Positions 1,970-20,412 of a stretch of DNA of 64,000 nucleotides are shown piece by piece. The stretch's first letter is position 1; each line of letters opens with the position of its first letter. The notes beneath the pieces are model-generated. The model had not been told where the DNA came from and made no database searches. It saw only the letters and a program-made list of their open reading frames with translations. The position numbers and the translations under genes are program-made. Source of the DNA: Bdellovibrionales bacterium (GTDB lineage Bacteria; Pseudomonadota; Alphaproteobacteria; JAIXQD01); NCBI GenBank assembly GCA_050248995.1, contig JBFWRI010000003.1, positions 28,619 to 92,618 of the forward strand, in the 5' to 3' direction.

Positions 1970-4765
1970 TCAGTGCGCCATCGCCCAGTTATCGGCGATC
2001 CCTGCTTCGCAAACCAACGGTACAGCAACAAGTGCGGGGTCAGCAACGCTTTCCATGACCTTTTTGGCCAGCGCCGCTGTCGCCTCGGCCTCGTCCGCCG
2101 GCGCTTCCAGCACCAGCTCGTCATGCACCTGTAAAATCATGCGGCCTTTCAATCCGACAGCACGCAACGCCGGCGGCAGTGCGATCATCGCCCGTTTCAT
2201 GATATCCGCCGCGGTGCCCTGCAGCGGTGCGTTGACGGCCTGCCGTTCGGCATACTGACGGCGGGCGGCATTCTTGTCGGCGATGCCCGGCACCCAGCAG
2301 CGGCGCCCATACAGCGTTTCCACATAGCCTTTGGCGCGCGCCTTATCTTTCTGCGCTTCCATAAATGTGCGCAATTCGGGGAAGCGGCCAAGATAACCGC
2401 CGATGAAGGCGTTGGCTTCGCCCGGCGAAATACCCAGCTGTTTTGCAAGCCCAAAGCCCGAGATGCCGTAGATGATGCCGAAGTTGATCGCCTTGGCGCT
2501 GCGGCGCTGTGCCGGTGTCACTTCGCTCAGCGGCACGCCCAGCACCTGGCTGGCTGTCAGCGCATGAATGTCGACACCGTCTTTAAACGCCTGCGCCAGC
2601 GCCTCGACGCCCGCCATCGACGCCGCCAGACGCAGTTCAATCTGCGAGTAATCAACGCTGATCAGCTTGCTGCCTTCTTCGGCCACGAAGGCGCGGCGAA
2701 TTTCGCGGCCGTCTTCGGTGCGGATTGGGATGTTCTGCAGGTTCGGATCGGATGATGACAAGCGGCCAGTTGATGTGATGGCCAGCGCGAACGACGTGTG
2801 CACGCGGCCGGTACGCGGGTTGATCTGTTCCTGCAAGGCTTCCGTGTAGGTGCTGCGCAGTTTCGAAACCCCGCGCCAGTCCAGCACTTTCTGTGCAATT
2901 TCATATTCGTCGGCCAACGGCTCCAGTATTTCGACGCCCGTGGCATACGCGCCGGTCTTGCTTTTAGTGCCGCCTGGCAACCCCATTGCGCCGAACAACA
3001 CGTCACCCAGCTGTTTAGGTGAGCCAACATTGAATTCCTGACCGGCCAGTTTATAAATTTCAGTCTCCAGCTCCGCCTGCTGCTTCGCAAAGCGCTGCGA
3101 CAGCCCCGCCAGCACGGCGGCATCAATCTTCACGCCCGCCGTTTCCATATCGGCCACCACGGCCACCAGCGGGCGCTCCATGCGCTCGTAAATCCGCGAG
3201 ATGCCTTCGCGCTGCATATTCCCCTTGATGGCCAGCCACAGGCGCAGCGTGAAGTCGGCATCTTCGGCGGCGTATTGCGTGGCTTTGTCCAGCGGCACAC
3301 GGTCGAAGGTGATCATATTCTTGCCCGTGCCGCAGACTTCGCTGAACGGAATCATCTTGTGGCCGAAGTAGCGCTCGGCCAATTCGTCAAGGCCATGACC
3401 ATGCAGCCCCGCACCCATCACATACGACAGCAGCATCGTATCGTCGTGCGGCGTTACATCAAAACCGTTGGCGCGCAAAACCTGCAAATCAAACTTCAGA
3501 TTATGCGCCACTTTCATGATGGCCGGATCGGTCAGCAGGGGATTCAGCGCGCTTATAACGTCTTTCAACGCCAGTTGCTGCGGCCTTTCGGCCAGCGCCA
3601 GCCCACCATCGCGGTCGATACCGTGGTTCAGCGGGATATAGCACGCATCGCCCGGCGCTACTGCCAGCGATATACCCACCAGCAGTGCTGTTGACGGTGT
3701 CAGACTATCGGTTTCCGTATCCAGCGCCAACGCCTGCACGTTCCTGATCTTTTCAACCCACTTGTGCAGCTGGCCGGTTGTTGTCACACATTCATAGTGT
3801 GCATCCATGCCTGTCAGCGCCATGGCGGATGCTACCGATACCGCTGCTGCGGCTGCAGGCTTGGCATTTTCGGCACGCTCGGCCGATGCTGGTGGCGGGA
3901 TATCGGCCCCCGACAACCCCATGCGCGTGATGATCGATTTGAAACCCTGCTGCTGCAAGAAAGCCGCCAGCGTCGTGTTATCCTTATTCACATTCAGGTC
4001 TTCAAGCGCAACCGGCAGCGGCACATCGACCTTCAGCGTCACAAGCTTTTTTGAAATGCGCGCTAGTTCGGCATTATCAATCAGCGTCTGGCGGCGCTTG
4101 GGCTGCTTGATTTCTTCCGCGCGCTGCAACAGTGTTTCCAGGTCGCCATAAATGCCGATCAGTTCGGCGGCCGTCTTCACACCAATGCCAGGCACGCCCG
4201 GCACGTTGTCGGCGGAATCGCCGGCCAGCGCCTGCACATCCACAACCTTTTCCGGCCCCACGCCGAATTTGTTCATCACGTCATCAAGTGCCAGTGTCTT
4301 GCCTTTCATCGGATCGAACAGCTCGATCCCGTCGTCCATCAACTGCATCAAGTCCTTGTCGCCGCTGACAATCACCACGTCTTCGCCGCGCGCCTTGGCC
4401 GCCAGCGCATAAGACGCCAGCAGATCATCGGCCTCGAAACCTTCCATTTCAATCGCCGGCAGGCCGAACGCGCGCGCTGCTTCTTTTACCAGCGCAAACT
4501 GCGGGATCAGGTCTTCCGGCGGCTCGGGACGATGCGCCTTGTATTCGGGGTAAATATCCATGCGGAAGGTTTTGCGCGCCGCATCGAAAATCACCGCCAT
4601 GTGCGTAGCGCCCAAATCTTTTTCCAGCTTTGCCAGCATATTGCAAAAGCCCATCACGGCACCAACTGGTGTGCCGTCAGCGCGCGTCAATGGCGGCAGT
4701 GCGTGATAGGCGCGGAAGATAAAACCCGAGCCATCAACCAGATAAAGTTTCTTCTTAGTGGCCAT
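1970..4765 (-). CDS. polA: DNA polymerase I
   Basis: 931 aa from MATKKKLYLVDGSGFIFRAYHALPPL (the ORF-track start 4837 is an upstream in-frame extension). 5'-3' exonuclease, 3'-5' exonuclease and polymerase regions are recognisable across the length. Ends DNWAMAH. Confidence 0.95.
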   Translation of the reverse strand: MATKKKLYLVDGSGFIFRAYHALPPLTRADGTPVGAVMGFCNMLAKLEKDLGATHMAVIFDAARKTFRMDIYPEYKAHRPEPPEDLIPQFALVKEAARAFGLPAIEMEGFEADDLLASYALAAKARGEDVVIVSGDKDLMQLMDDGIELFDPMKGKTLALDDVMNKFGVGPEKVVDVQALAGDSADNVPGVPGIGVKTAAELIGIYGDLETLLQRAEEIKQPKRRQTLIDNAELARISKKLVTLKVDVPLPVALEDLNVNKDNTTLAAFLQQQGFKSIITRMGLSGADIPPPASAERAENAKPAAAAAVSVASAMALTGMDAHYECVTTTGQLHKWVEKIRNVQALALDTETDSLTPSTALLVGISLAVAPGDACYIPLNHGIDRDGGLALAERPQQLALKDVISALNPLLTDPAIMKVAHNLKFDLQVLRANGFDVTPHDDTMLLSYVMGAGLHGHGLDELAERYFGHKMIPFSEVCGTGKNMITFDRVPLDKATQYAAEDADFTLRLWLAIKGNMQREGISRIYERMERPLVAVVADMETAGVKIDAAVLAGLSQRFAKQQAELETEIYKLAGQEFNVGSPKQLGDVLFGAMGLPGGTKSKTGAYATGVEILEPLADEYEIAQKVLDWRGVSKLRSTYTEALQEQINPRTGRVHTSFALAITSTGRLSSSDPNLQNIPIRTEDGREIRRAFVAEEGSKLISVDYSQIELRLAASMAGVEALAQAFKDGVDIHALTASQVLGVPLSEVTPAQRRSAKAINFGIIYGISGFGLAKQLGISPGEANAFIGGYLGRFPELRTFMEAQKDKARAKGYVETLYGRRCWVPGIADKNAARRQYAERQAVNAPLQGTAADIMKRAMIALPPALRAVGLKGRMILQVHDELVLEAPADEAEATAALAKKVMESVADPALVAVPLVCEAGIADNWAMAH

Positions 4766-5059: not shown

Positions 5060-5136
5060 GTTCCCGTAGCTCAACTGGATAGAGCGTTGCCCTCCGAAGG
5101 CAAAGGTTGGAGGTTCAAGTCCTCTCGGGAACGCCA
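5060..5136 (+). tRNA. tRNA-Arg (anticodon CCG)
   Basis: Cloverleaf folds by eye: acceptor GTTCCCG/CGGGAAC, D-stem GCTC/GAGC, anticodon stem TTGCC/GGCAA with loop CTCCGAA, T-arm GGAGG-TTCAAGT-CCTCT, 3' CCA encoded. Confidence 0.9.
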
Positions 5137-5154
5137 GACATCAAAAAAGAAGCC

Positions 5155-5979
5155 ATGGTCACAGTATATCCTCTCAAGTACGGGAAAATTCATCTCAACA
5201 GAGCTCCACGTGAGGAGAGTCGTTTTTACCTGCGCTTGAATCAAGTTATTAATGACATAAAAATGCTCCAGATAATTGGTTACGCTTGCACCGGCTATAC
5301 CCGGAAAGGAGATAAGGATCCTGTAGTACGACACGCCCAGGATGCAATGCTTATCTTTACTTGGAGAATACTTTGTGGGCGACTTTGGGAGGGCTATAAA
5401 CTTCTACGAGAACATGGACAGATAATTAACGCTGCCGACTTATCCGGCGAAGGCGAAACGCCAGAACAAGGAAAAGAATCGCTCAAAAAGGTTCACTCTT
5501 ACTTCAAGGGTAAAAGCCTCATTCAAAAAGTGCGTGATAAAATTGGCTTCCACAATATTGCAGATATTCAAGAAAGTGCCTTTGATTTAATTCCTGCAAC
5601 AGATGTTATGGTTGAGTATATTGGCGATATGCAAGGACATTTCTTTTTCGCCGGTGCTGAATTCCTAAATAGGGCTGCAATCACTGCGCTAACTGAGAAA
5701 CCGACTCTAGACGAGGCAATAAATGCTATAATGCATGATATGTTAATGGTATCCGGACTCTTTATCGATATTGGCGATCGCTACGCTGCATTTTTTTGTA
5801 AAACGTACTTAAAGAAGAAGCTAAAAAAGCCCCTCTCTCCCCATATTATAAATGGGGCACCAGAACTTTTGAATCAAGATTTGCGATTTTTTTGCGAACA
5901 TACAAAAAAGTCTAATAAGCCCGCGAGAATACAGCCATTACCGTTGCTGGCTTGCCGGTCAGCACGCAGGCGCCGCTGA
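5155..5979 (+). CDS. hypothetical protein in AT-rich islet adjacent to tRNA-Arg
   Basis: ORF starting MVTVYPLKYGK (the track start 5107 overlaps the tRNA). Markedly lower GC than flanks. No known motif. The 3' 68 nt overlap the proS stop region. Confidence 0.45.
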   Translation: MVTVYPLKYGKIHLNRAPREESRFYLRLNQVINDIKMLQIIGYACTGYTRKGDKDPVVRHAQDAMLIFTWRILCGRLWEGYKLLREHGQIINAADLSGEGETPEQGKESLKKVHSYFKGKSLIQKVRDKIGFHNIADIQESAFDLIPATDVMVEYIGDMQGHFFFAGAEFLNRAAITALTEKPTLDEAINAIMHDMLMVSGLFIDIGDRYAAFFCKTYLKKKLKKPLSPHIINGAPELLNQDLRFFCEHTKKSNKPARIQPLPLLACRSARRRR

Positions 5980-7630: not shown

Positions 7631-8659
7631 ATGATCCCCGATACGCCCAAAATTCTATTTTGCCTGACCGACGCTACCACCAAGGACGGGTTGCACTTTG
7701 AAGCCATGAACACGGCGTTGGCGGCGAAGGGCTTTATTTTTGCCGGCGAAGGCACAACCACCACCGGCAAGGTGCTGTTGGTCTACTTCACGTACGAAAT
7801 CGCGCCGAAGGAAAACATATTCAGCCGGCGCTATCATCTGCATGCGGCATTGCTCCCCCTCAAGCGCGCGCAAACGCTGGCGGCCGACGGCAGCGCTTTC
7901 GCGGCACTTGTCAGCAAGGCCAAACAGGGCGACCGCGACCTGAGACTGCGGCCCGGCGACGAATTTATTGCCGACCTCTCCAGCAACCGCGCGCGCTCGT
8001 CTGTCTGGGTTATCCGGCGCAACGGGCAGAAGCTGTTACGCAAGGCCTTCAATGCCGGCAGCATAGCATTTGTCGAACGCGAAGTTCTGGCCCGCAGCAT
8101 CATCAAGGATACACGCATGGCACCTATCGTCTTGCGCGAGGGGAATGTGCTGTACATGCCATTCTACCAGACAGGCTATGTCTGGCGCGAGGGCCTGCTG
8201 AACTTTTACCCGCGCCCGAAAGCCGCGCAGATCTTTGATTTTCTCGGCGCGATCAACCGCCAGGGCTATTCAATGATCGATATCAACCCCTCAGCCTTTC
8301 TGTGGGATGAAACTGGCGCTTTAAGGGTCGTTGACTTTGAGTTCTTCACGCAAACCCGCGTTGCCGACGATCTGAGAAAAAGCGTCGATTTCATCGGCGA
8401 TGTCGGCCACCTGCCAGCGCCGGCCAAAAATGGTTACAAACGCTACTGGTATGACCCGCTGGGCGGGCCATGGCCCCGTATTATGGAATATAACAAGGGC
8501 ACACGGCTTGTTGTTAAAGCCCTGCACCTGCTGTTTTACCGTTTGCCAAGGCGCGCGGCCAAGACTCTGGATCGCGCCCGCAAATCGGCGCTTACTTATC
8601 TCGCTGCTGCACGCGACCTGAAAGCGGGCGGGCTAAAAGACGGGTACTTTAATATATGA
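7631..8659 (+). CDS. hypothetical protein with atypical protein-kinase-like (Kdo/RIO-kinase-like) fold
   Basis: 342 aa. Segment SMIDINPSAFLWDETGALRVVDFEF resembles the catalytic loop plus the DFx metal-binding motif of Kdo/RIO-type kinases, with the catalytic His replaced by Met. ATGA overlap with the next gene. Confidence 0.55.
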   Translation: MIPDTPKILFCLTDATTKDGLHFEAMNTALAAKGFIFAGEGTTTTGKVLLVYFTYEIAPKENIFSRRYHLHAALLPLKRAQTLAADGSAFAALVSKAKQGDRDLRLRPGDEFIADLSSNRARSSVWVIRRNGQKLLRKAFNAGSIAFVEREVLARSIIKDTRMAPIVLREGNVLYMPFYQTGYVWREGLLNFYPRPKAAQIFDFLGAINRQGYSMIDINPSAFLWDETGALRVVDFEFFTQTRVADDLRKSVDFIGDVGHLPAPAKNGYKRYWYDPLGGPWPRIMEYNKGTRLVVKALHLLFYRLPRRAAKTLDRARKSALTYLAAARDLKAGGLKDGYFNI

Positions 8660-10107
8660 CACCTGAAACTTTTCTTCGCGATCGCCTTGTACTGCTGGCA
8701 GGCACACCCGCCGCCACAGCCACCGATGTGCGCAACCATGCGCCGCGCGACGTGCTGGAGATGAATGTCAAAAAATCATCGCAGGTCGGCGCCACCAACT
8801 GCGACGCTGCTGTTTTATGCGGAAAAGCCGGCGCTGCCCTGCGTTCGCGCCGGTTTATCGACACCTTTATATATATAGCTCTGCCGTGGGGTTCCGGCTG
8901 GCTGGCCGCCCTGCCCGGCCTGTTGCGTTACGCCCTGCGCGGCGCCCTTAAATATCGCGGTACAATCACGCTGGCCGGTTTTACCCTGCCGGTACCGGTG
9001 TTCGAGAACAAGCGCACGGGTTCGCGCAAGCGTGCCCGTGTTTATGCGCCCAACTGGCCCGCGCTGAAAATCATGCAGATGCTGAACGACACCGACTGCA
9101 TTGCCCTGCGCTGGATTGAAAGCATCGAAGACGGTTCACACACGGGCGATATCGACATTCTGGCCGGCAGCGGCGACTTGCAAACCATCCAGCAGCGTTT
9201 TCGCACGCACGCCGGCACACAGGCAATCGACCTTTATAGTTCGGATGCCAGCGGCGGCTGCGTGTTCAAGGATGTCGCCTACTTCCCGCCCTTCATGGCG
9301 CGGCAGATGCTGGCCACTGCCGTCACGCGGCCCAGCGGCATCAAGGTTGCGAACGACGAATGGCGCTTTGTGTCGTTCTGCTATCATCTGTTGTTCCATA
9401 AATCCGAACAGCTGGCGATCGGTGCCGAGGAATTGACCGAGAAAAGTTTTTCACGCCCTGATTACGTGCGCGAACTGCAAAGGCTGGCAGCCGCAGCCGG
9501 CCAGCCTGCCCCACGCAGCATCACCGACATCGAAAACCTGCTGAAAGCCCGCAACGTATTCCCTGAAATCGACACCATCGGCTTCCTGAGCACCGGCAAC
9601 AGGTTCCTGCAGCATCGCTATTATAATAAAAGCGGCGATTACATGCCGGGTCTGACGGTTTTTCTGGCCCGCGACTTCGGGCTTGAAGGCGATATCACCA
9701 CCGATATCCGCCGCCAGATTGAAAGTGCCGGGTTCAGCATCCTGCATGAACGCCCGGTTGACCCGAACACGCAGCACGCTGTCGTGCACGCCATCCGTGG
9801 CGGCAACTGGTCGGATAGCGTCGCGCCCGGCGGTATCGCACTGCCGCTGCACGCCTATGTTGCATATGACGCGCAGCCGCTGGCAATCAAAGGCGGCGAC
9901 GCCAAGCGTTACCCGCGTCTTGATAACGCGCGTACGCTTTTAAAGAAATCGGTGCGCGAGGGTTACGCCGCACAGGCCGGTGTGCGCAAGGTCAACATCC
10001 TGCATGCCAGCGATAACACTGCCGAAGCCGTCGGCTATGTTGCGGCGCTGGGCGTCGGTGAAATCCCGGCGGTAAAGGAAATCCTTACCCGTTTGCGCAA
10101 GACCTAG
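8656..10107 (+). CDS. hypothetical protein (483 aa), translationally coupled to upstream kinase-like gene
   Basis: Start overlaps the upstream stop (ATGA). No confident domain. GSHTGDIDIL is reminiscent of nucleotidyltransferase motifs but too short to assign. Confidence 0.5.
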   Translation: MTPETFLRDRLVLLAGTPAATATDVRNHAPRDVLEMNVKKSSQVGATNCDAAVLCGKAGAALRSRRFIDTFIYIALPWGSGWLAALPGLLRYALRGALKYRGTITLAGFTLPVPVFENKRTGSRKRARVYAPNWPALKIMQMLNDTDCIALRWIESIEDGSHTGDIDILAGSGDLQTIQQRFRTHAGTQAIDLYSSDASGGCVFKDVAYFPPFMARQMLATAVTRPSGIKVANDEWRFVSFCYHLLFHKSEQLAIGAEELTEKSFSRPDYVRELQRLAAAAGQPAPRSITDIENLLKARNVFPEIDTIGFLSTGNRFLQHRYYNKSGDYMPGLTVFLARDFGLEGDITTDIRRQIESAGFSILHERPVDPNTQHAVVHAIRGGNWSDSVAPGGIALPLHAYVAYDAQPLAIKGGDAKRYPRLDNARTLLKKSVREGYAAQAGVRKVNILHASDNTAEAVGYVAALGVGEIPAVKEILTRLRKT

Positions 10108-10171: not shown

Positions 10172-11464
10172 ATGTCTCGTGTTGCGTGGCTTTTTCTTGA
10201 TTTGAATTCCTTCTTCGCATCATGCGAACAGCAGGACGATCCCACCTTGCGCGGCAAGCCCGTTGCCGTCGTCCCCTCGCTGACCGACACCACCAGCGTC
10301 ATCGCCGCCAGTTATGCCGCCAAGGCCTTCGGCATCCGCACCGGCACGCGTGTGCGCGAAGCTAAACAGATGTGCCCCGGCCTTATCCTGCGCACCGGGA
10401 ATCACAAACGCTATGTGCAGCACCACAACGCCGTGAAGCGGGCCATTGAAGACGTGCTGCCGATCGAAATGGTGTGCTCGGTTGATGAATTCGCCTGCCG
10501 CCTGATGGGTGACGAGTGTGAGGTGCGCGAAGCGATTGCACTGGCCGAATGCGTCAAGCAATCCATCCGCCAGAAGGCCGGCGAAGCGCTCACCTGCTCA
10601 ATCGGCCTTGCCCCCAATCGCTTTCTTGGCAAGGTCGCTGCCGACATGCAGAAGCCTGACGGCCTGACCGTTATCAGCCTCGATGATATTCCCGGCAAGT
10701 TGCTACGCCTTAAACTGCAGGATTTCCCCGGTATCGGCCCGCGCATGGCGCAACGCCTTATCAACCAGGGCGTCACCACGGTTGAACAGCTCTATGCGGC
10801 CGATATCCCAACCATGCGTGCGCTGTGGGGCGGCATCGAAGGCGAGAAGTTTTACCAGAAACTGCGAGGTGAAGACCCGTTCTACCGCGCAACCGAAACC
10901 GGCAGCTTCAGCCACCAGCACGTTTTAGAGCCGAAGTTCCGCAGCATGGACGGTGTATCCGCTTATGCCCAGCACCTGCTGCTGAAACTGGCCGAACGCC
11001 TGCGCGACCAGCAATATCTGAGCCGTCGCTTAAGTCTTGTCATACGCTACGCCGGCACCTTCCAGCGTGCGCACGCTGAAACGTCGTTCCATGAAACCGC
11101 TGACAGCCTGACATTACTGCGTGCGCTGAAAGACCTGCTGGCACAAATGCCGCGCGGCAAACCTTTCAAGGTGGCCGTCACGGTCAGCGATCTTATTCCT
11201 GCGGCGCGCCGCCAGCTGGACCTGTTCACCGACGAACAGGAAAGCGAACTTTCAACCGCGCTGGACGACATCAACCAGAAGTACGGCCGCGGCACGCTGT
11301 ACTTCGGTGCCACGCAGGCGCTGCAAAAGCACCTGCATGCGCGTATCGCCTTCCAGCGGGTGCCGGATGAACAGGAGTTCGACGCGCGCGACACCACAGA
11401 ACGGGAATTCCAGAAGCACCTGAACCGTATCAGTGCCATTGAAGACCGCCGACGTGGCGGCTAA
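10172..11464 (+). CDS. Y-family DNA polymerase, UmuC-like (translesion synthesis)
   Basis: N-terminus FLDLNSFFASCEQ...GKPVAV matches UmuC ALCDVNAFYASCE...GKPVVV, and SVDEF matches SIDEAF. Catalytic D, D/N and E are present. 430 aa. No umuD-like gene nearby. Confidence 0.8.
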   Translation: MSRVAWLFLDLNSFFASCEQQDDPTLRGKPVAVVPSLTDTTSVIAASYAAKAFGIRTGTRVREAKQMCPGLILRTGNHKRYVQHHNAVKRAIEDVLPIEMVCSVDEFACRLMGDECEVREAIALAECVKQSIRQKAGEALTCSIGLAPNRFLGKVAADMQKPDGLTVISLDDIPGKLLRLKLQDFPGIGPRMAQRLINQGVTTVEQLYAADIPTMRALWGGIEGEKFYQKLRGEDPFYRATETGSFSHQHVLEPKFRSMDGVSAYAQHLLLKLAERLRDQQYLSRRLSLVIRYAGTFQRAHAETSFHETADSLTLLRALKDLLAQMPRGKPFKVAVTVSDLIPAARRQLDLFTDEQESELSTALDDINQKYGRGTLYFGATQALQKHLHARIAFQRVPDEQEFDARDTTEREFQKHLNRISAIEDRRRGG

Positions 11465-14509: not shown

Positions 14510-16230
14510 CGGGCCACCCCATAGCGCAGAGCCGGCTGCGCAACCACACCTGCGTGACGCACAGTCAGCACGCCATGCCGCAGCTCGTAAATACGGTCGG
14601 CCAGCCCGAGGATGTTTTGATCCTCAGTCACCAACACCAGTGTCACGTTGCGCCTAAGACGCATCAGCATACTGAAAACCGAAGCGTAACTGGATCTGTC
14701 CAGCCCCTGGCCGGCATTATCAAACAACCCAGCGCGCGGGCGCTGCAGCAAAACACGCGCGATAGCAATGCGTTGTTTGAGGCCGGGCGATACCGCGTCA
14801 CTAATAGTGTTGTCCAACTGCGTTTCGTACCCGGCCGGCAGCAGCGCCACAGCCGATTCAATACCCAGCGCCGTTGCCAGTAGGCGCACATCAGCGGGTG
14901 GACGATCCTGGAAACCCGTGATGTTGTCCATGATTGTGCCACGCAGGATCAGTCCGCGTGTCGGCAGATAACCGATTGCCTGCGCACGCGCCGTATCAGT
15001 TAGCTGCGATGCATCAACGCCCCCCAGAAGCACGCGTCCGCTGTCGGGCGCATAAAGCCCTGCCATCAGTTCCAGCAGGGCTGTCTTGCCGCACCCGGCC
15101 GGGCCTGTGATAGCAATAGCCTCGCCCGGCATTACCGTCAGCGAAAGCTTGTCAATAACAGGGCTGCAGGCGCCAAACGACAGTTGCGCCTGTTGCAGTT
15201 TCAGCGGCACCGGACCCAGTATCGCGCCGGGCTCAACCCGCCGCGTTTCAAGTTTCATAATCGTGGCAAGCCGCTGGGCCGCCACGTTGATGTCCTGCCA
15301 GCGCAACCACAGGCCAGCTCCGCGCTGAACGTGCTGCAGGATCTGACCCGACAGCATTATCCCAGCCGCCAGCATACCGCCTGTGATCATGCCCTTTACC
15401 GCCAGTACCGCACCAACCCCCATTAACGCCGTTACCATGATCTGGGCGCCCAGATAGCCAAACGTGCCCGACGCGCTTTGCAAACAGGCCAACCGGTAAA
15501 GAACGGGCGCCCCTGCACGCTGCAAGTCATCGTAGCGTTGTGCTACGTCGCTTTCCCAGCACATAGCCTTGATGGTAGGCAGCGCCTGCAAAGCCTGGCT
15601 GGCGAATGTGTGCCGCCTGTCATCATGACGCTCGCGCGCGGCGGTCAGGTCACGCAGAGCACGGCCGTGGCGAACAAACATAAGTATGGCGATGGCAATA
15701 CCGCCGACCGTTACAAAGACCAGAGGGCCGGTCAGGTAGAATGTCAGCACCAGAAACAGGACAGCGAAAGGTATATCGACCAGCAGTGTCGCCGTCATCT
15801 GGCCTCCATAGTATTCTTTGAGACGCTGGACGGCGTTGATATCCTGCACGCGCACAGTGGTTGTCTTGCTGGCCTGGCGACGCGGCTCGATTGCAAGCAG
15901 ATGCGCCAGCGCGGCCGACGACATCGTTTCATCGAACCTAGCGGCCGTTCTGGACGTTACCGTCTGGCGCAACAGACGCAACAGACACTCGGCCAGCGCG
16001 GCAACCAGCACACCCGCGGACAAGATTAGCAGCGTATCGGCGGCACGGCTAATCATCACACGGTCATAAATCTGAATTGTCATCAGCGGCAGCGCCAGGG
16101 CCAGCAGGTTGATGGCAACCGATGATCCCATAACCAGCGCAGCGTGTGGCGTGCGAAGCATCAGGCGGTACGATGACGGGATAAGAGACACCAGATAAAC
16201 CTCAAGTTGTATATGTTGATGACCGTACAA
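14506..16230 (-). CDS. type I secretion ABC transporter half-transporter A (TMD-NBD, no C39 domain); degenerate Walker B/H-loop
   Basis: 574 aa. Walker A GPAGCGKTA. Near-consensus signature VSPGLKQRIAIARVLL. Walker B position GLFDNAG (catalytic Glu -> Asn). H-loop position VTED (His -> Glu). 4-nt overlap with the downstream ABC gene. Start uncertain: TTG at 16230 or ATG at 16161. Confidence 0.8.
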   Translation of the reverse strand: MYGHQHIQLEVYLVSLIPSSYRLMLRTPHAALVMGSSVAINLLALALPLMTIQIYDRVMISRAADTLLILSAGVLVAALAECLLRLLRQTVTSRTAARFDETMSSAALAHLLAIEPRRQASKTTTVRVQDINAVQRLKEYYGGQMTATLLVDIPFAVLFLVLTFYLTGPLVFVTVGGIAIAILMFVRHGRALRDLTAARERHDDRRHTFASQALQALPTIKAMCWESDVAQRYDDLQRAGAPVLYRLACLQSASGTFGYLGAQIMVTALMGVGAVLAVKGMITGGMLAAGIMLSGQILQHVQRGAGLWLRWQDINVAAQRLATIMKLETRRVEPGAILGPVPLKLQQAQLSFGACSPVIDKLSLTVMPGEAIAITGPAGCGKTALLELMAGLYAPDSGRVLLGGVDASQLTDTARAQAIGYLPTRGLILRGTIMDNITGFQDRPPADVRLLATALGIESAVALLPAGYETQLDNTISDAVSPGLKQRIAIARVLLQRPRAGLFDNAGQGLDRSSYASVFSMLMRLRRNVTLVLVTEDQNILGLADRIYELRHGVLTVRHAGVVAQPALRYGVAR

Positions 16231-16312
16231 CCCAAAGTTTAATCAAAAATGACTTCCTCCTACGCCTGTAACCGCACCGCCTGTACATATTTACAGCGAT
16301 ATGCGCGTCGCT

Positions 16313-18337
16313 CTATCCATTGCCGAACAACCCACCACCAAACAGACCACCCGTCAGAGGTTCCACGGCAGGCAATGATGTAATGGTCGCGACCGGCAGG
16401 ATTTCGGCGACGGGCAGTATATCCGCTTCCGGCATACTATCCAACAGCAGCGTGTCCACGATATCCAGCGAACTTTCAACTGCGCCAGCCAGTTCCGGCA
16501 GCATGGTTATGCTTTCGTCAACGAATTGTGTCGGCTCGACTTGCTCTAAAACAGCGGTGGCATCGATATCCTCATCGACCGCTCCGCCTGGTTCCAAGAT
16601 CCCACCCAGCATATCCGGATTCATGTCCGGCAGCATCTCGGTCGTACCAACAACAAGGGTACTGTTATTATCACCTTGCGTATCAAGCGTCAGCCATGAC
16701 GAATTCAGCAGGTCAGTATTCGATTCCGAAGCCGTATGAGAAAGAAGGTCAATGTCGATCAAGTCGTTATCTTCAGCCTGGTCCGACCGGCTAAGGATAT
16801 CAATGTCCACCAGATCGTTATCACTAGCAGTGGCATTGCTGGCATTCTCGCCCAGAATGCCTATATCAAGGTCGATGATGTCGTCGTCCTGAACAGCCTG
16901 TGTCGAGTTACTTCCCAGCAGCGCCACTCCGACGTCAGCGATGTCATTGTCATCACCTGCCTGCTGCGCATTGTTCCCCAATATACCCGCATCAAGATCC
17001 ACGGTATCGCTGTCTGTCAGCACGGCGACGTTGTTGTCTTGCAACAGGGCGATATCGCCGTCGACAGGATCATTGTCCGTGGTTGTGCCACGCTCAAAGC
17101 CCGACCCCGTAACACCTGGCGAGGCAAGATCAATCAGACCGGACGCACCAATCAAGTCTGGGGCCACCGAAGCGATATCGTCCACACCTGCTACGTTAAG
17201 GATATTGCCGGTCTGTTCATTAGCAACGTCCTGAGCCAAGCCCGTTATATTCGTCAGCATATCAAGCCCCCCTTCTGCGCCTGCATCGACGCTATCTGTC
17301 AATGTCGCTTCTAAAAGTGCATTGAAAACATTCCCCCACCCATCCTGTGTGGCGGCCATAACATCTGCCGCCACTGCCGTAACGCCATCAGTCATACCGT
17401 TCACCATCAGCAAAGTGTCCTCAACGAGGTTGCCGGCATCCCCGGCCGCAAGAGAAGCCAACATGTCAGGCAGCGGTTCGGTTACCGGTGATAAAACAGT
17501 TTCCACACTCTCTGTGGCAGCCGCCAGCAGGCGTGTTGCTGTTTGTGTTATGTCAACCACAGTTTCCAGCGTGCTATCAACAACTGGCGCCAAGGCCGGC
17601 AGTTCGGGCAGGATGCTGTTCCCGATTATTCCTTCAGCGATACCCCGTACGGGAGCCTCTATGCTTTCCACGATCTCGCTGACGGTTTCCGCCAGCGGCG
17701 TAACCGCGTCTGTTGCTGCATCTGTCACGGCTTCAATAAGCGTGTCGATGGTTTCACCAACATTATCTGTGATATCTGCAACCGGCAAGAATTCTGGTGA
17801 TATCGTATCAGTGAGGGTCTCGCCTACCGGCAGCCATGCTGGTGCCTTCGTATCTGCTTCCATGGCAGCAGAAGCATCGTTGCCGGCAAAACCGGGCAAT
17901 GACGGCGCCTGAGGCAGGCCCGCGCCAGCTACATTTTCCAGCGAGGTTGGAACACCGGCTATGTCGGACATCAGGAAGGGCGGTGCATCTGCCAACGCAG
18001 TGCCGTCATCCGGCCTTCTACCGTTGGCACCGGCACTGTCTGCTGCCAGATCTGCAGGCAGGCGCAGGCGACCTATAACATCCTCGAGCGCGACATCGGG
18101 AAGCCCGCCGGCCCGCAGTGCCGAAGGGCTGGCCATATTCGCGATAGCAAGATTTTCATCAAGGCGCATCACGCCAGCAAGATGCCTCTCTGAAGCAGCG
18201 TCGTAATTGATAACATGACCGATATTCAGGTTGCCCGTAGCGGCAACATTCTCCAGATCCATATTCAGCGACTGGCCGCCAAAGATATTGGCTTCACTTA
18301 GTTTGCTGGAAACTTTACTTGCAAGGTCAGTCAGCAT
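16313..18337 (-). CDS. putative type I secretion substrate: acidic, Cys-free repeat protein with Gly-rich C-terminus
   Basis: About 675 aa from MLTDLASKV (GGAG 8 nt upstream; the ORF-track start 18523 is an extension). Very high D/E/A/T/V content. Tandem repeats of roughly 20 aa (DNDIADVGVALLGSN / DDDIIDLDIGILGEN / DNDLVDIDILS / DNDLIDIDLLS). C-terminus ...PLTGGLFGGGLFGNG. Directly upstream of the ABC-ABC-HlyD genes. Confidence 0.6.
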   Translation of the reverse strand: MLTDLASKVSSKLSEANIFGGQSLNMDLENVAATGNLNIGHVINYDAASERHLAGVMRLDENLAIANMASPSALRAGGLPDVALEDVIGRLRLPADLAADSAGANGRRPDDGTALADAPPFLMSDIAGVPTSLENVAGAGLPQAPSLPGFAGNDASAAMEADTKAPAWLPVGETLTDTISPEFLPVADITDNVGETIDTLIEAVTDAATDAVTPLAETVSEIVESIEAPVRGIAEGIIGNSILPELPALAPVVDSTLETVVDITQTATRLLAAATESVETVLSPVTEPLPDMLASLAAGDAGNLVEDTLLMVNGMTDGVTAVAADVMAATQDGWGNVFNALLEATLTDSVDAGAEGGLDMLTNITGLAQDVANEQTGNILNVAGVDDIASVAPDLIGASGLIDLASPGVTGSGFERGTTTDNDPVDGDIALLQDNNVAVLTDSDTVDLDAGILGNNAQQAGDDNDIADVGVALLGSNSTQAVQDDDIIDLDIGILGENASNATASDNDLVDIDILSRSDQAEDNDLIDIDLLSHTASESNTDLLNSSWLTLDTQGDNNSTLVVGTTEMLPDMNPDMLGGILEPGGAVDEDIDATAVLEQVEPTQFVDESITMLPELAGAVESSLDIVDTLLLDSMPEADILPVAEILPVATITSLPAVEPLTGGLFGGGLFGNG

Positions 18338-18561
18338 CGCGGTCTCCATATGAATATGTGAAAATGAACGAGCGATAGAAAACACCACGACCTTAGCGCG
18401 CCGGTTTTGCGAACGGCTTAATGGGCGACATATGGATTGCAGAGAAATTGAAATGGATTTTAAGCACTGCGGAACAGAGCGTCGGCTGCGACGTCCTTGG
18501 TATCCTGCGTCCGGATGATGCAAACGGGCACCAGTACCAATGGTTACATGTGTACGTACGG

Positions 18562-19059
18562 TTATGTAGGCGTGCGGCGCGCGCGGTGCTTAGGAATGGC
18601 GCCTGAGGCAGGATGTTGTGAGCGCCGCGCATCACGAGCCTTCATCGCGTCTTTATAATAATACGGGTTCTGGCGCTGGGCCGCCACACCCCCGCGGCTG
18701 ACCGACGCTTCGCTGATCATCAACCCGTGATCCTTCCCCAACGTTTCTTCTACAATGTCCAGCACAAGGTCGTAAGCTTCGCGGATATCTTCTGTTGCTG
18801 CCACTTCCATGCGGAAGCCGACAACGCCGCGCCGGCCATCGCGGGCGTACTTCTGTCGGTTCGGATTGCGGCGCGTATAACGCGCTGTGGGATGGACGGC
18901 AGGACCGATGAAGCTGAAGTGACCGCTGTCGCACAACGCCATTTCCAGTGCATAGGCATCTTTCATCGGCATCAGCGGAAAGTGATATTCGTCGCCATGC
19001 GGCCACGGATTGTCCTGCTGCAGGCGCGGCGTCAGGATAACGAATTCAATTTTTTCCAT
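18562..19059 (-). CDS. hypothetical protein (166 aa), likely co-transcribed with nucleoside hydrolase
   Basis: Start MEKIEFVILTP. Overlaps the upstream nucleoside hydrolase stop by 14 nt. Confidence 0.45.
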   Translation of the reverse strand: MEKIEFVILTPRLQQDNPWPHGDEYHFPLMPMKDAYALEMALCDSGHFSFIGPAVHPTARYTRRNPNRQKYARDGRRGVVGFRMEVAATEDIREAYDLVLDIVEETLGKDHGLMISEASVSRGGVAAQRQNPYYYKDAMKARDARRSQHPASGAIPKHRARRTPT

Positions 19060-20026
19060 GGTGCTTTTCCTGCAAAAGCTTCTTGAAACTGCCACATACT
19101 ATATCGAAGACAGCATCGGGGTCACGTTGCTTTTCCATCACAAGAATATTGCTGTCAGCGCGCGGCGTAAAGACGCTGTGCCCCTTGTTGCCGTCGGTTA
19201 GGTCAACGGCGATGTCACCACGCTGGCCTTCGTACAGGTCAGGCTGCGCCAGGTAAACGGCCGTATGCACGTCATGCATAAACGCTGAAGCACCGAATTT
19301 CCGCATGTCGATTTCAGCCGGCACTTTCATCAGGCTGACGACGGTTTCCAATTCTGGCATCCCTGCCAGCTCCCGTCGCAGTATTGACTCGCGCACCGGC
19401 GTGAAATCCAGCTGCTGAGTGCAGTTCATCGGCAGCACAACCAGCGGCAGACCGCTTGTCATCACAGTTGCCGCATCGTTTGGCGCCATGTGAAAGTTGA
19501 ATTCAGCGTATGGCGTCAGATTACCCTGCCGCACCGGCATATCCTTGGCTGGCAGCGGTTTCGTGCAGGCACCCATAATGACAATCTGCTTCACGCGACG
19601 CATGGCTTCCGGGTCTTTCCTGAACGCGACTGCAATATTGGTCAGTGGGCCAGTGGCCGTAATGGTAACACTGCCTGACGGATGTGCCTTCAGCGTTTCC
19701 AGAATAAAGTCTTCGGCCATCTGCGTTTGCGGCTCGTTTTCAGGCGGCGGCAGCACCACACCGCCAACGCCGCTTGATCCATAAGCATCATCACCTTCAG
19801 GTGATGGCTCGTTACTGGGCCCTGCTGCGCCCGGATATCGCTTAATATCGCTAACGCCAAAAAAGCCTTGGATACTTCCGGCGTTATAAAAAACCTGTTT
19901 CTGGGTTGTGTTGCCGAACGTCGCTGTGATGCCAAGGATTTTGAACCTCTCAGGCTGGGCTGCCAGCACAAGGAATACCTGTGCATCATCGCTGCCCCAG
20001 TCGCCATCACATATAATAAGTTCCAT
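19046..20026 (-). CDS. inosine-uridine-preferring nucleoside hydrolase family protein
   Basis: N-terminal MELIICDGDWGSDDAQVFLVLAA matches the IU-NH aspartate cluster motif (DxDxxxDD). About 326 aa. Confidence 0.75.
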   Translation of the reverse strand: MELIICDGDWGSDDAQVFLVLAAQPERFKILGITATFGNTTQKQVFYNAGSIQGFFGVSDIKRYPGAAGPSNEPSPEGDDAYGSSGVGGVVLPPPENEPQTQMAEDFILETLKAHPSGSVTITATGPLTNIAVAFRKDPEAMRRVKQIVIMGACTKPLPAKDMPVRQGNLTPYAEFNFHMAPNDAATVMTSGLPLVVLPMNCTQQLDFTPVRESILRRELAGMPELETVVSLMKVPAEIDMRKFGASAFMHDVHTAVYLAQPDLYEGQRGDIAVDLTDGNKGHSVFTPRADSNILVMEKQRDPDAVFDIVCGSFKKLLQEKHHGKN

Positions 20027-20337: not shown

Positions 20338-20412
20338 TGGTTGGGGTACCAGGATTCGAACCTGGGAATGTCGGTACCAAAAACCGATGCCTTACCGCTT
20401 GGCGATACCCCA
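20338..20412 (-). tRNA. tRNA-Gln (anticodon UUG)
   Basis: The reverse complement reads TGGGGTATCGCCAAGCGGTAAGGCATCGGTTTTTGGTACCGACATTCCCAGGTTCGAATCCTGGTACCCCAACCA, close to E. coli tRNA-Gln. Anticodon loop TTTTGGT. Confidence 0.9.

Follow-up and report, generated by a model that had tools for sequence, protein, structure and literature searches.

Proteases of the RTX type typically have an isoelectric point (pI) of 4.0–4.6, and RTX repeats lie between the body of the protein and an uncleaved C-terminal signal (PMC3034196). In the four-component type I secretion system (T1SS) of Vibrio MARTX (RtxB, RtxE, RtxD and TolC), both ATP-binding cassette (ABC) proteins are needed for secretion (PMC3034196). 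Here, a stretch of 64,000 nucleotides from a Bdellovibrionales bacterium (contig JBFWRI010000003.1, positions 28,619–92,618; called the window throughout) was analysed for a gene on its minus strand (the cargo gene), whose product (the cargo protein) carries tandem repeats built around D-N-D and is encoded directly upstream of two ABC half-transporters and a HlyD-type adaptor. The cargo protein is probably a T1SS substrate. At a rough probability of 0.6, it would be a dedicated T1SS substrate with Ca2+-folding D-N-D repeats, an N-terminus used for anchoring or as a second contact, and an adhesive surface body; Ca2+-driven folding of the repeats, taken by itself, is a tentative proposal to which we give somewhat less than even odds. 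The cargo family is a new, very rare protein family whose repeats are of a new type, in a system of a known kind, and the function proposed for the cargo protein is inferential.

Transporter genes and their linkage to the cargo gene

The cargo gene is followed on the same strand by the genes of the half-transporters ABC1 and ABC2 and then by that of the adaptor. A preliminary description, made from the sequence alone, had presented the product as T1SS cargo, and this status is well supported because of the gene neighbourhood, that is, by ABC1, ABC2 and an adaptor passing the NCBIfam model TIGR01843 downstream of the gene, and by four other loci. ABC_membrane and ABC_tran domains were found with Pfam in each of the two ABC proteins and HlyD in the adaptor, which scored 343.7 bits with TIGR01843 (cut-off 208.65) over model positions 1–422. 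Despite scores below the cut-offs, the LssB, PrtD and HlyB models were the best-scoring NCBIfam families for both ABC proteins (304.6, 241.7 and 240.1 bits for ABC1; 382.1, 272.4 and 276.3 bits for ABC2), and the best half-transporter matches in the PDB were HlyB (7sgr, 8dck) and PrtD (5l22). Both proteins start at the transmembrane domain: matches open at LssB model positions 135–154, past the peptidase domain, and no Peptidase_C39 match was found in either. The operon formed by the four genes holds no other candidate substrate. With a pI of 4.05, no Cys and no Sec signal peptide, the cargo protein has a T1SS-substrate-like composition; its first 30 residues have a mean hydropathy of −0.11 and lack a hydrophobic core, so the N-terminus is not of the Sec type.

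Homologues of the cargo gene were found beside orthologous ABC1, ABC2 and adaptor genes in five loci, the window included (the others being L007, L008, L009 and L015), with differing surroundings. In L007 (44% identity), L009 (45%) and L015 the cargo homologue was immediately followed by an ABC1 orthologue, which in L015 was fragmented and recognisable by its VISHGLKQR signature. The gene order in L008 was ABCa (38% identical to ABC1), ABCb (41% to ABC2, with about 160 extra residues at its N-terminus), adaptor (44%), a REC-HATPase_c_2 protein, a hybrid kinase, the cargo homologue and a convergent outer-membrane factor; the gene set of L015 was the same. The REC-HATPase_c_2 protein and hybrid histidine kinase beside the cargo homologue (L008, 6101–9831; L015, 7595–10647) and the REC-domain genes immediately upstream of it in L006 (1013–1429), L007 (9328–9759), L012 (270–992) and L014 (8329–9689) suggest phosphorelay control of the relatives' cargo systems. 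The window lacks such a gene: tblastn searches with the relatives' response-regulator and kinase genes found no match in the 64 kb.

Genes for a Peptidase_C93 (LapG-like) protein, a PAS-HD protein and a ShlB/POTRA two-partner-secretion transporter (3039–3689 and 1189–2880) were located about 6 kb from the cargo homologue in L014. These genes give a possible hint of LapG-type processing, confined to this locus. The LapG cleavage site has the consensus (T/A/P)-A-A-(G/V). For the cargo protein itself a LapA-like retained adhesin (LapG/LapD) was rejected, as the cargo protein reads VAATG, the relatives read SATG with a single Ala, and the di-alanine is not conserved.

For comparison of the ATP sites, the motifs of both ABC proteins were aligned with HlyB of enterohaemorrhagic Escherichia coli (EHEC) as a reference (Table 1). 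The defects of ABC1 and ABC2 are complementary, and therefore all severe defects fall in one composite ATP site, which points to a predicted obligate heterodimer with one consensus and one dead site. The same asymmetry is repeated in the L008 orthologues and in a fused homologue from Azospirillum. With an identity of only 26% between them, ABC1 and ABC2 would therefore form an old, maintained pair.

Table 1. ATP-site motifs of EHEC HlyB and of the two ABC proteins of the window
Motif	HlyB	ABC1	ABC2
Walker A	GRSGSGKS	GPAGCGKT (kept)	GSNGSGKS (kept)
Q-loop Gln	present	lost	kept
Signature	LSGGQRQR	VSPGLKQR	LSDTLAAR (degenerate)
Walker B	ILIFDE	...LFDN (catalytic Glu replaced by Asn)	IVLCDE (kept)
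D-loop	SALD	QGLD	HVLN (degenerate)
H-loop	IAHRLS	VTEDQN (His lost, replaced by Glu)	VTHHNN (His kept)

The cargo protein, its repeats and its relatives

Repeat units were mapped in the cargo protein at residues 421, 442, 463, 484, 506 and 523 (unit starts; DNA positions 17077, 17014, 16951, 16888, 16822 and 16771), with spacings of 21, 21, 21, 22 and 17 residues. The consensus of 38 distinct units from six proteins was x-G-x-D-N-D-Φ-Φ-D-Φ-D-Φ-x-Φ-L-G-N (Φ, hydrophobic) followed by a linker of 3–8 residues, with D0, N1, D2, D5 and L11 near-invariant. With a position-specific scoring matrix (PSSM) derived solely from other family members (31 distinct units), the six cargo units scored 11.8–23.8 bits, and composition-preserving shuffles gave 0.03–0.04 hits of at least 8 bits (maximum 2), with either the whole protein or the D-rich region 401–560 alone. 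Lag-21 autocorrelation of the protein gave z = 5.1. The D-N-D units are judged to be statistically real and common to several family members; their period is 21 in the cargo protein and in the relatives P0002–P0004, 23 in P0005 (15 units) and 18 in L013. In AlphaFold2 (AF2) models each unit formed one strand at low confidence, and the mean predicted local distance difference test score (pLDDT) was 37.8 for the cargo protein (5-sequence alignment) and 39.4 for the more regular relative P0005. Because both models are of too low confidence to use, Ca2+ binding or adhesion by the repeats stays inference.

The preliminary description had counted at least five tandem units of about 20 residues at 16,690–17,010. 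The units themselves stood, their number now being six and their length 17–22 residues, and the mapped block (16,718–17,077) is slightly upstream of the position given. Its further suggestion of highly repetitive, recombinogenic DNA found no support for the cargo gene: Tandem Repeats Finder reported no array at a score of at least 30 and the best DNA copies within the gene were 30 nt long with 63–77% identity, so the cargo DNA is not repetitive and gives no basis for recombination. The relative in L013 (549–959) contains a 54-nt unit in 7.6 copies with 87% identity, encoding GGNDNDLIDLGLLNGGT[AV]. This array looks like a recent expansion of the repeat, its 18-residue period being the length of two RTX nonapeptides, and copy number therefore varies within the cargo family.

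By far the best-conserved part of the cargo family is the N-terminal stretch of about 45 residues, which contains the motif ENxSATGNLNIGxVIxYD; seven of its residues (T34, G35, L37, N38, I39, G40 and D46) are invariant across the relatives. A profile of this N-terminal motif (N-motif) gave no match in the PDB at E ≤ 10. The motif is present in L010, L011 and L015, which have N/T-rich tracts and 11/33-residue A/P/V/T repeats instead of D-N-D repeats; as it is kept with or without D-N-D repeats, it is the motif that defines the family, the repeat modules being exchangeable. Swapped central modules are amphipathic helices of 11-residue period, tracts rich in N/T and D-N-D repeats of 18–23 residues, and the family members range in size from 500 to 950 residues.

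Residues 180–400 are predicted to form amphipathic helices with hendecad (11-residue) periodicity, one face consisting of V/I/L/A and the other of T/D/E/S, with almost no basic residues. The hydrophobic period of about 3.7 residues recurs in P0003 and in L010 (3.65), the 11-residue autocorrelation of P0003 reaching z = 6.6, and the AF2 model has long helices at 185–382 (pLDDT 45–59). The part of the protein outside the repeats had been called low complexity in the preliminary description; with this strongly periodic region, it is not plain low complexity. The C-terminal 130 residues of the cargo protein contain no Lys or Arg, and the last 60 residues are free of both in 8/8 members. Residues 541–660 are the presumed site of an uncleaved C-terminal secretion signal. 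The protein ends in GGLFGGGLFGNG (PLTGGLFGGGLFGNG), and the Gly-rich tail noticed earlier was thus confirmed (...PLTGGLFGGGLFGNG). A weak motif, G-x-L-F-G-G (G-x-LFGG), near the C-terminus is common to the cargo protein, P0004, P0005, L010 and L011 and is often followed by a His-rich end; in general, the C-termini of the family lack Lys and Arg and are rich in Gly, Leu, Phe and His.

The family is very small: of the billions of sequences searched, about 16 belong to it. When 1.84 billion cluster representatives were searched exhaustively with phmmer, only four relatives were returned (E 7e-13 to 9e-4), all of which carry the N-motif. A metagenome scan and the N-motif profile together added about 11 sequences, several of them assembly fragments; in 5.8 billion sequences the profile found additional members at E 1e-12 to 1e-23. 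Word-seeded (k-mer) searches with the whole protein or a 5-member alignment gave the self match only, low-complexity words having saturated the candidates. The cargo protein is identical to the NCBI metagenome-assembled genome (MAG) entry 'hypothetical protein AB7G06_01685 [Bdellovibrionales bacterium]', and the best-annotated relative, P0005, comes from an 'Alphaproteobacteria bacterium' MAG. No match was obtained for 8/8 members in Pfam and NCBIfam at E ≤ 5, for two repeat blocks in the PDB at E ≤ 10, or for the cargo protein in PLSDB plasmids by tblastn; the whole-family profile gave coiled-coil noise only in the PDB (E ≥ 0.09), and full-text literature searches for TGNLNIG, DNDLIDL, DNDLIDI and GNDNDL found no paper in the library searched. 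These searches agree with the preliminary description in that the protein matches no described family (eight members, Pfam and NCBIfam at E ≤ 5; PDB at E ≤ 10). Weak, non-significant Pfam matches in relatives were to perilipin, apolipoprotein and ApoO (11-mer-repeat helical proteins), because of the 11-mer periodicity of the helical region, and to collagen-type composition noise.

The gene starts with ATG at 18337, with GGAG 8–11 nt 5′ of it; this start was preferred because homologue N-termini align to it, and the longer open reading frame (ORF) starting with TTG (to 18523) is not needed. Plus-strand translation of 16313–18337 is stop-ridden, and the one long ORF is on the minus strand. The product contains 76 Asp and 40 Glu (116 in total) vs 14 Lys/Arg, and no Cys (pI 4.05), and the earlier characterization as Cys-free and extremely acidic was therefore correct. 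The strand, the N-terminal motif, the hendecad-type helical region and the asymmetric ABC pair are additions to that description. G+C contents at the first and second codon positions (GC1, GC2) match those of other genes of the window, as for a typical coding sequence of this genome; at the third position (GC3) the value is 0.55, vs 0.64–0.69 in the transporter genes and 0.69–0.74 in housekeeping genes, and fast evolution, relaxed codon selection or foreign origin may account for the low value. A promoter and terminator scan of 16100–18700 gave nothing above shuffled expectation, and no attenuator was found between the cargo gene and ABC1.

Table 2. Coordinates of the cargo gene, of the regions of its product and of the transporter genes in the window (NBD, nucleotide-binding domain)
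Feature	Position	Strand	Basis or remarks
Cargo gene	16313..18337	−	674-aa product, Cys-free, pI 4.05
Family-defining N-terminal motif, aa 29–47 (ENVAATGNLNIGHVINYDA)	18197..18253	−	relatives' alignments
Acidic amphipathic region, aa 180–400	17138..17800	−	hydrophobic period ~3.7 residues (11/3), predicted helical
Six tandem D-N-D units, aa 421–540	16718..17077	−	unit PSSM, consensus
Acidic C-terminal region, aa 541–660, no Lys/Arg	16358..16717	−	composition
Gly-rich tail, aa 661–674 (LTGGLFGGGLFGNG)	16316..16357	−	composition and motif comparison
ABC1, ABC half-transporter, 561–574 aa by start codon	14506..16191/16230	−	no N-terminal C39 or C39-like domain; NBD degenerate
ABC2, ABC half-transporter, 583 aa	12758..14509	−	overlaps ABC1 stop; 26% identical to ABC1
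HlyD-family type I secretion periplasmic adaptor, 437–454 aa	11467..12831	−	TIGR01843

Housekeeping genes of the chromosome surround the operon (polA, proS, secA, recA and genes for a Y-family polymerase and a nucleoside hydrolase). When genome contigs were scanned with ABC2, only unrelated ABC proteins were detected (23–30% identity). ORFs lacking a Pfam or NCBIfam match were located at 18562–19095 (−), 7631–8659 (+), 8656–10107 (+) and 5107–5979 (+). The first of these (165–177 aa) is directly upstream of the cargo gene, and the two that overlap precede the gene of the Y-family DNA polymerase (10172–11464). Two tRNA genes, at 5060–5133 (+) and 20341–20412 (−), were the only Rfam matches in the window at the gathering threshold.

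Secretion model and alternative explanations

According to the preferred model, the cargo polypeptide, with a net charge of about −100 and no Cys, would remain unfolded in the low-Ca2+ cytosol and would be threaded C-terminus first via a channel of ABC1/ABC2, adaptor and TolC-like protein. The six D-N-D units directly precede the C-terminal ~130 residues, which is the position of RTX blocks in classical substrates; outside the cell they would bind Ca2+ and form a stack of short amphipathic β-strands (Φ-D-Φ-D-Φ) that blocks back-sliding. The conserved N-terminus would exit last and might, family-wide, act as an anchor to the cell surface or channel or as a second transporter contact, and the exposed helical and repeat body would be a surface or matrix (adhesive) protein. 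An extended version, which we regard as doubtful, takes the ATGNLNIG motif as a new T1SS docking or retention element for an ABC heterodimer with a single active site, and D-N-D as a Ca2+-triggered repeat independent of RTX. This would make a distinct T1SS class with modular passenger repeats that swap rapidly, which Micavibrio-like Alphaproteobacteria, predatory or host-associated, might use to attach to surfaces. Micavibrio, an alphaproteobacterial predator, is filed under Bdellovibrionales in the NCBI taxonomy, and with P0005 coming from an alphaproteobacterial MAG, the bacterium of the window may be Micavibrio-like. T1SS substrates of Micavibrio were proposed to act in prey attachment (PMC3189940); a tie between the cargo system and this attachment is a guess.

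Several observations speak against the preferred model. Both ABC proteins score below the NCBIfam cut-offs of LssB (TIGR03375, 693), PrtD (TIGR01842, 510) and HlyB (TIGR01846, 726). No gene for an outer-membrane factor (TolC-like) was found by tblastn in the 64-kb window, and such a gene must be elsewhere in the genome. The N-motif relatives L010 and L011 have no T1SS within 6–8 kb on their contigs. The N-terminus of the family is conserved and the C-terminal region poorly so, which is the reverse of what a purely C-terminal signal predicts. No computation performed here supports Ca2+ binding by the D-N-D units, and by inspection the unit is not an RTX nonapeptide, an EF-hand or a DxDxDG loop. 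For the latter comparison the consensus patterns of EF-hand, DxDxDG, dockerin, thrombospondin-3 and cadherin DxNDN were used, and the Asp spacing of the unit (0, 2, 5, 7) fits none of them.

That the cargo protein is not secreted at all, being a cytoplasmic or envelope-associated acidic protein (e.g. a cation buffer or regulator) encoded beside the exporter of another substrate, is very unlikely. In favour of this reading, the protein has no recognisable domains, L010 and L011 are the relatives just mentioned that are not beside a T1SS, and REC-domain genes are frequent neighbours in relatives. Linkage to orthologous ABC1, ABC2 and adaptor genes in five independent loci argues against this explanation, as do the lack of an alternative substrate candidate in the operon and the T1SS-substrate composition (no Cys, pI 4, K/R-free C-terminal 130 residues). 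If the protein is exported, the conserved motif could be a leader or docking peptide, as in double-glycine bacteriocin/NHLP systems, which also have two ABC proteins and a HlyD-type protein, and the C-terminus would then be irrelevant. The ~45 conserved residues track the T1SS even in L015, which has no D-N-D repeats, the set of two ABC proteins and a HlyD-type protein resembles NHLM_micro_ABC1/ABC2/HlyD (weaker but clear matches), and the ABC2 orthologue of L008 has an N-terminal extension of ~160 residues. This extension gave no Pfam match at E ≤ 5, however, both ABC proteins encoded in the window lack a C39 peptidase or C39-like domain, and a conserved Gly-Gly cleavage motif is absent from the N-terminal alignment. 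Family members are proteins of 500–950 residues and not peptides, the NHLP models scored far lower than the LssB, PrtD and HlyB models, and the adaptor exceeds the cut-off of the HlyD model for T1SSs; export by an N-terminal signal is thus considered quite improbable.

The repeats could also be read as divergent RTX. Each D-N-D unit would then be one RTX-like Ca2+ turn (G-G-x-[D instead of G]-N-D-x-Φ-x) plus a non-RTX return strand in a 'one-sided' β-roll, and the family would be a degenerate RTX offshoot, which we think unlikely. Units of P0005 and L013 (GGDDNDLLD or GGNDNDLID, i.e. GG[DN]DNDΦΦ[DE]) fit 4/5 specified RTX positions, the L013 period of 18 is exactly two nonapeptides, and the D-N-D block, like RTX blocks, precedes the C-terminus (PMC3034196). 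When a PSSM built from the 11 RTX nonapeptides of EHEC EhxA (locus L017) was applied, top positions were in register with D-N-D units in several members, and P0005 had three hits of at least 6 bits vs 0.5 expected. In the cargo protein, this PSSM peaked at 2.3 bits, below the mean maximum of shuffled sequences (4.2 bits), and the reciprocal D-N-D PSSM failed to pick EhxA RTX units. No PF00353 (HemolysinCabind) match at E ≤ 5 was obtained in 8/8 members, and no PDB RTX protein was matched at E ≤ 10. At RTX position 4 the D-N-D units have an invariant Asp instead of Gly, most of the GG pairs are gone from the cargo units, and periods of 21–23 misfit the 18-residue turn of a β-roll. GGxGxD does not occur in the cargo protein, and none of the reading frames of the 64-kb window encodes an RTX nonapeptide. 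By the defining tests (GGxGxD, PF00353 at E ≤ 5, RTX PSSM vs shuffles), the cargo protein is no RTX protein, in agreement with the preliminary description, and the in-register likeness to RTX is weak and, for the cargo protein, non-significant.

If secretion and Ca2+-dependent folding are true, the cargo system would be a second, sequence-unrelated answer, besides RTX, to the problem of being unfolded inside and folded outside, and would help in understanding the energetics of T1SSs and supply a new switchable scaffold made of repeats. Conservation of the N-terminus over the C-terminus challenges the textbook view of C-terminus-only recognition of T1SS substrates. ABC1/ABC2 would provide a natural protein-secreting pair with one competent ATP site, in which the number of ATP sites required for threading is directly testable. 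Given its extreme rarity and its restriction to uncultured bacteria, the family has limited practical impact at present.

Comparison with known systems

The locus resembles the RTX/T1SS systems (HlyA/HlyB/HlyD/TolC and the Serratia, Pseudomonas and Dickeya proteases with PrtD-type ABC proteins) in that the gene of a highly acidic, Cys-poor substrate is directly upstream of ABC and HlyD-type genes, and an Asp-rich tandem block of the substrate in the C-terminal third is followed by a non-repeat tail; like the PrtD group, the ABC proteins of the window have no N-terminal peptidase domain. Unlike in these systems, the cargo protein has neither GGxGxDxUx nonapeptides nor PF00353, its units being of 17–23 residues with the core D-N-D-Φ-Φ-D-Φ-D-Φ-x-Φ-L, two different ABC proteins are present instead of a homodimer, and the conserved element of the cargo family is the N-terminus and not the C-terminus. 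Two distinct ABC proteins with one adaptor and an unlinked tolC are also found in the Vibrio MARTX T1SS. The likeness noted here concerns this set of components. As differences, the cargo protein has 674 residues, unrelated repeats and no effector or autoprocessing domains, and the ABC proteins of the window lack an N-terminal extra domain and show a clear split into consensus and degenerate ATP sites. Such a split is known from heterodimeric type I ABC exporters (TM287/288, TmrAB, TAP1/2), in which one subunit has lost the Walker-B Glu and H-loop His and its partner has a degenerate signature, at the same composite site (PMC7756269). These exporters, however, transport small molecules or peptides and have neither an adaptor nor an outer-membrane partner, whereas the pair of the window has a HlyD-type adaptor and a protein substrate. 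Caulobacter RsaA-type proteins, a concept drawn from work cited in PMC3034196, are alike in architecture logic only (N-terminal anchor, Ca2+-dependent body and C-terminal signal); no sequence similarity to them was found, and anchoring of the cargo protein is purely hypothetical.

The closest cultured relative of the transporter that was found is encoded on an Azospirillum oryzae plasmid (NZ_CP054616.1; L016, 8863–14304). Here the two ABC halves are fused in one protein of 1354 residues, of which the first half is ~30% identical to ABC1 and degenerate and the second is 34% identical to ABC2 and canonical, and a HlyD adaptor 34% identical to that of the window follows. The cargo differs, being a divergently encoded giant Ig-like adhesin of >5400 residues without ATGNLNIG motif or D-N-D repeats. 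As the fused asymmetric ABC protein stands beside this giant Ig-like protein, asymmetric two-ABC T1SSs would therefore also serve giant adhesins.

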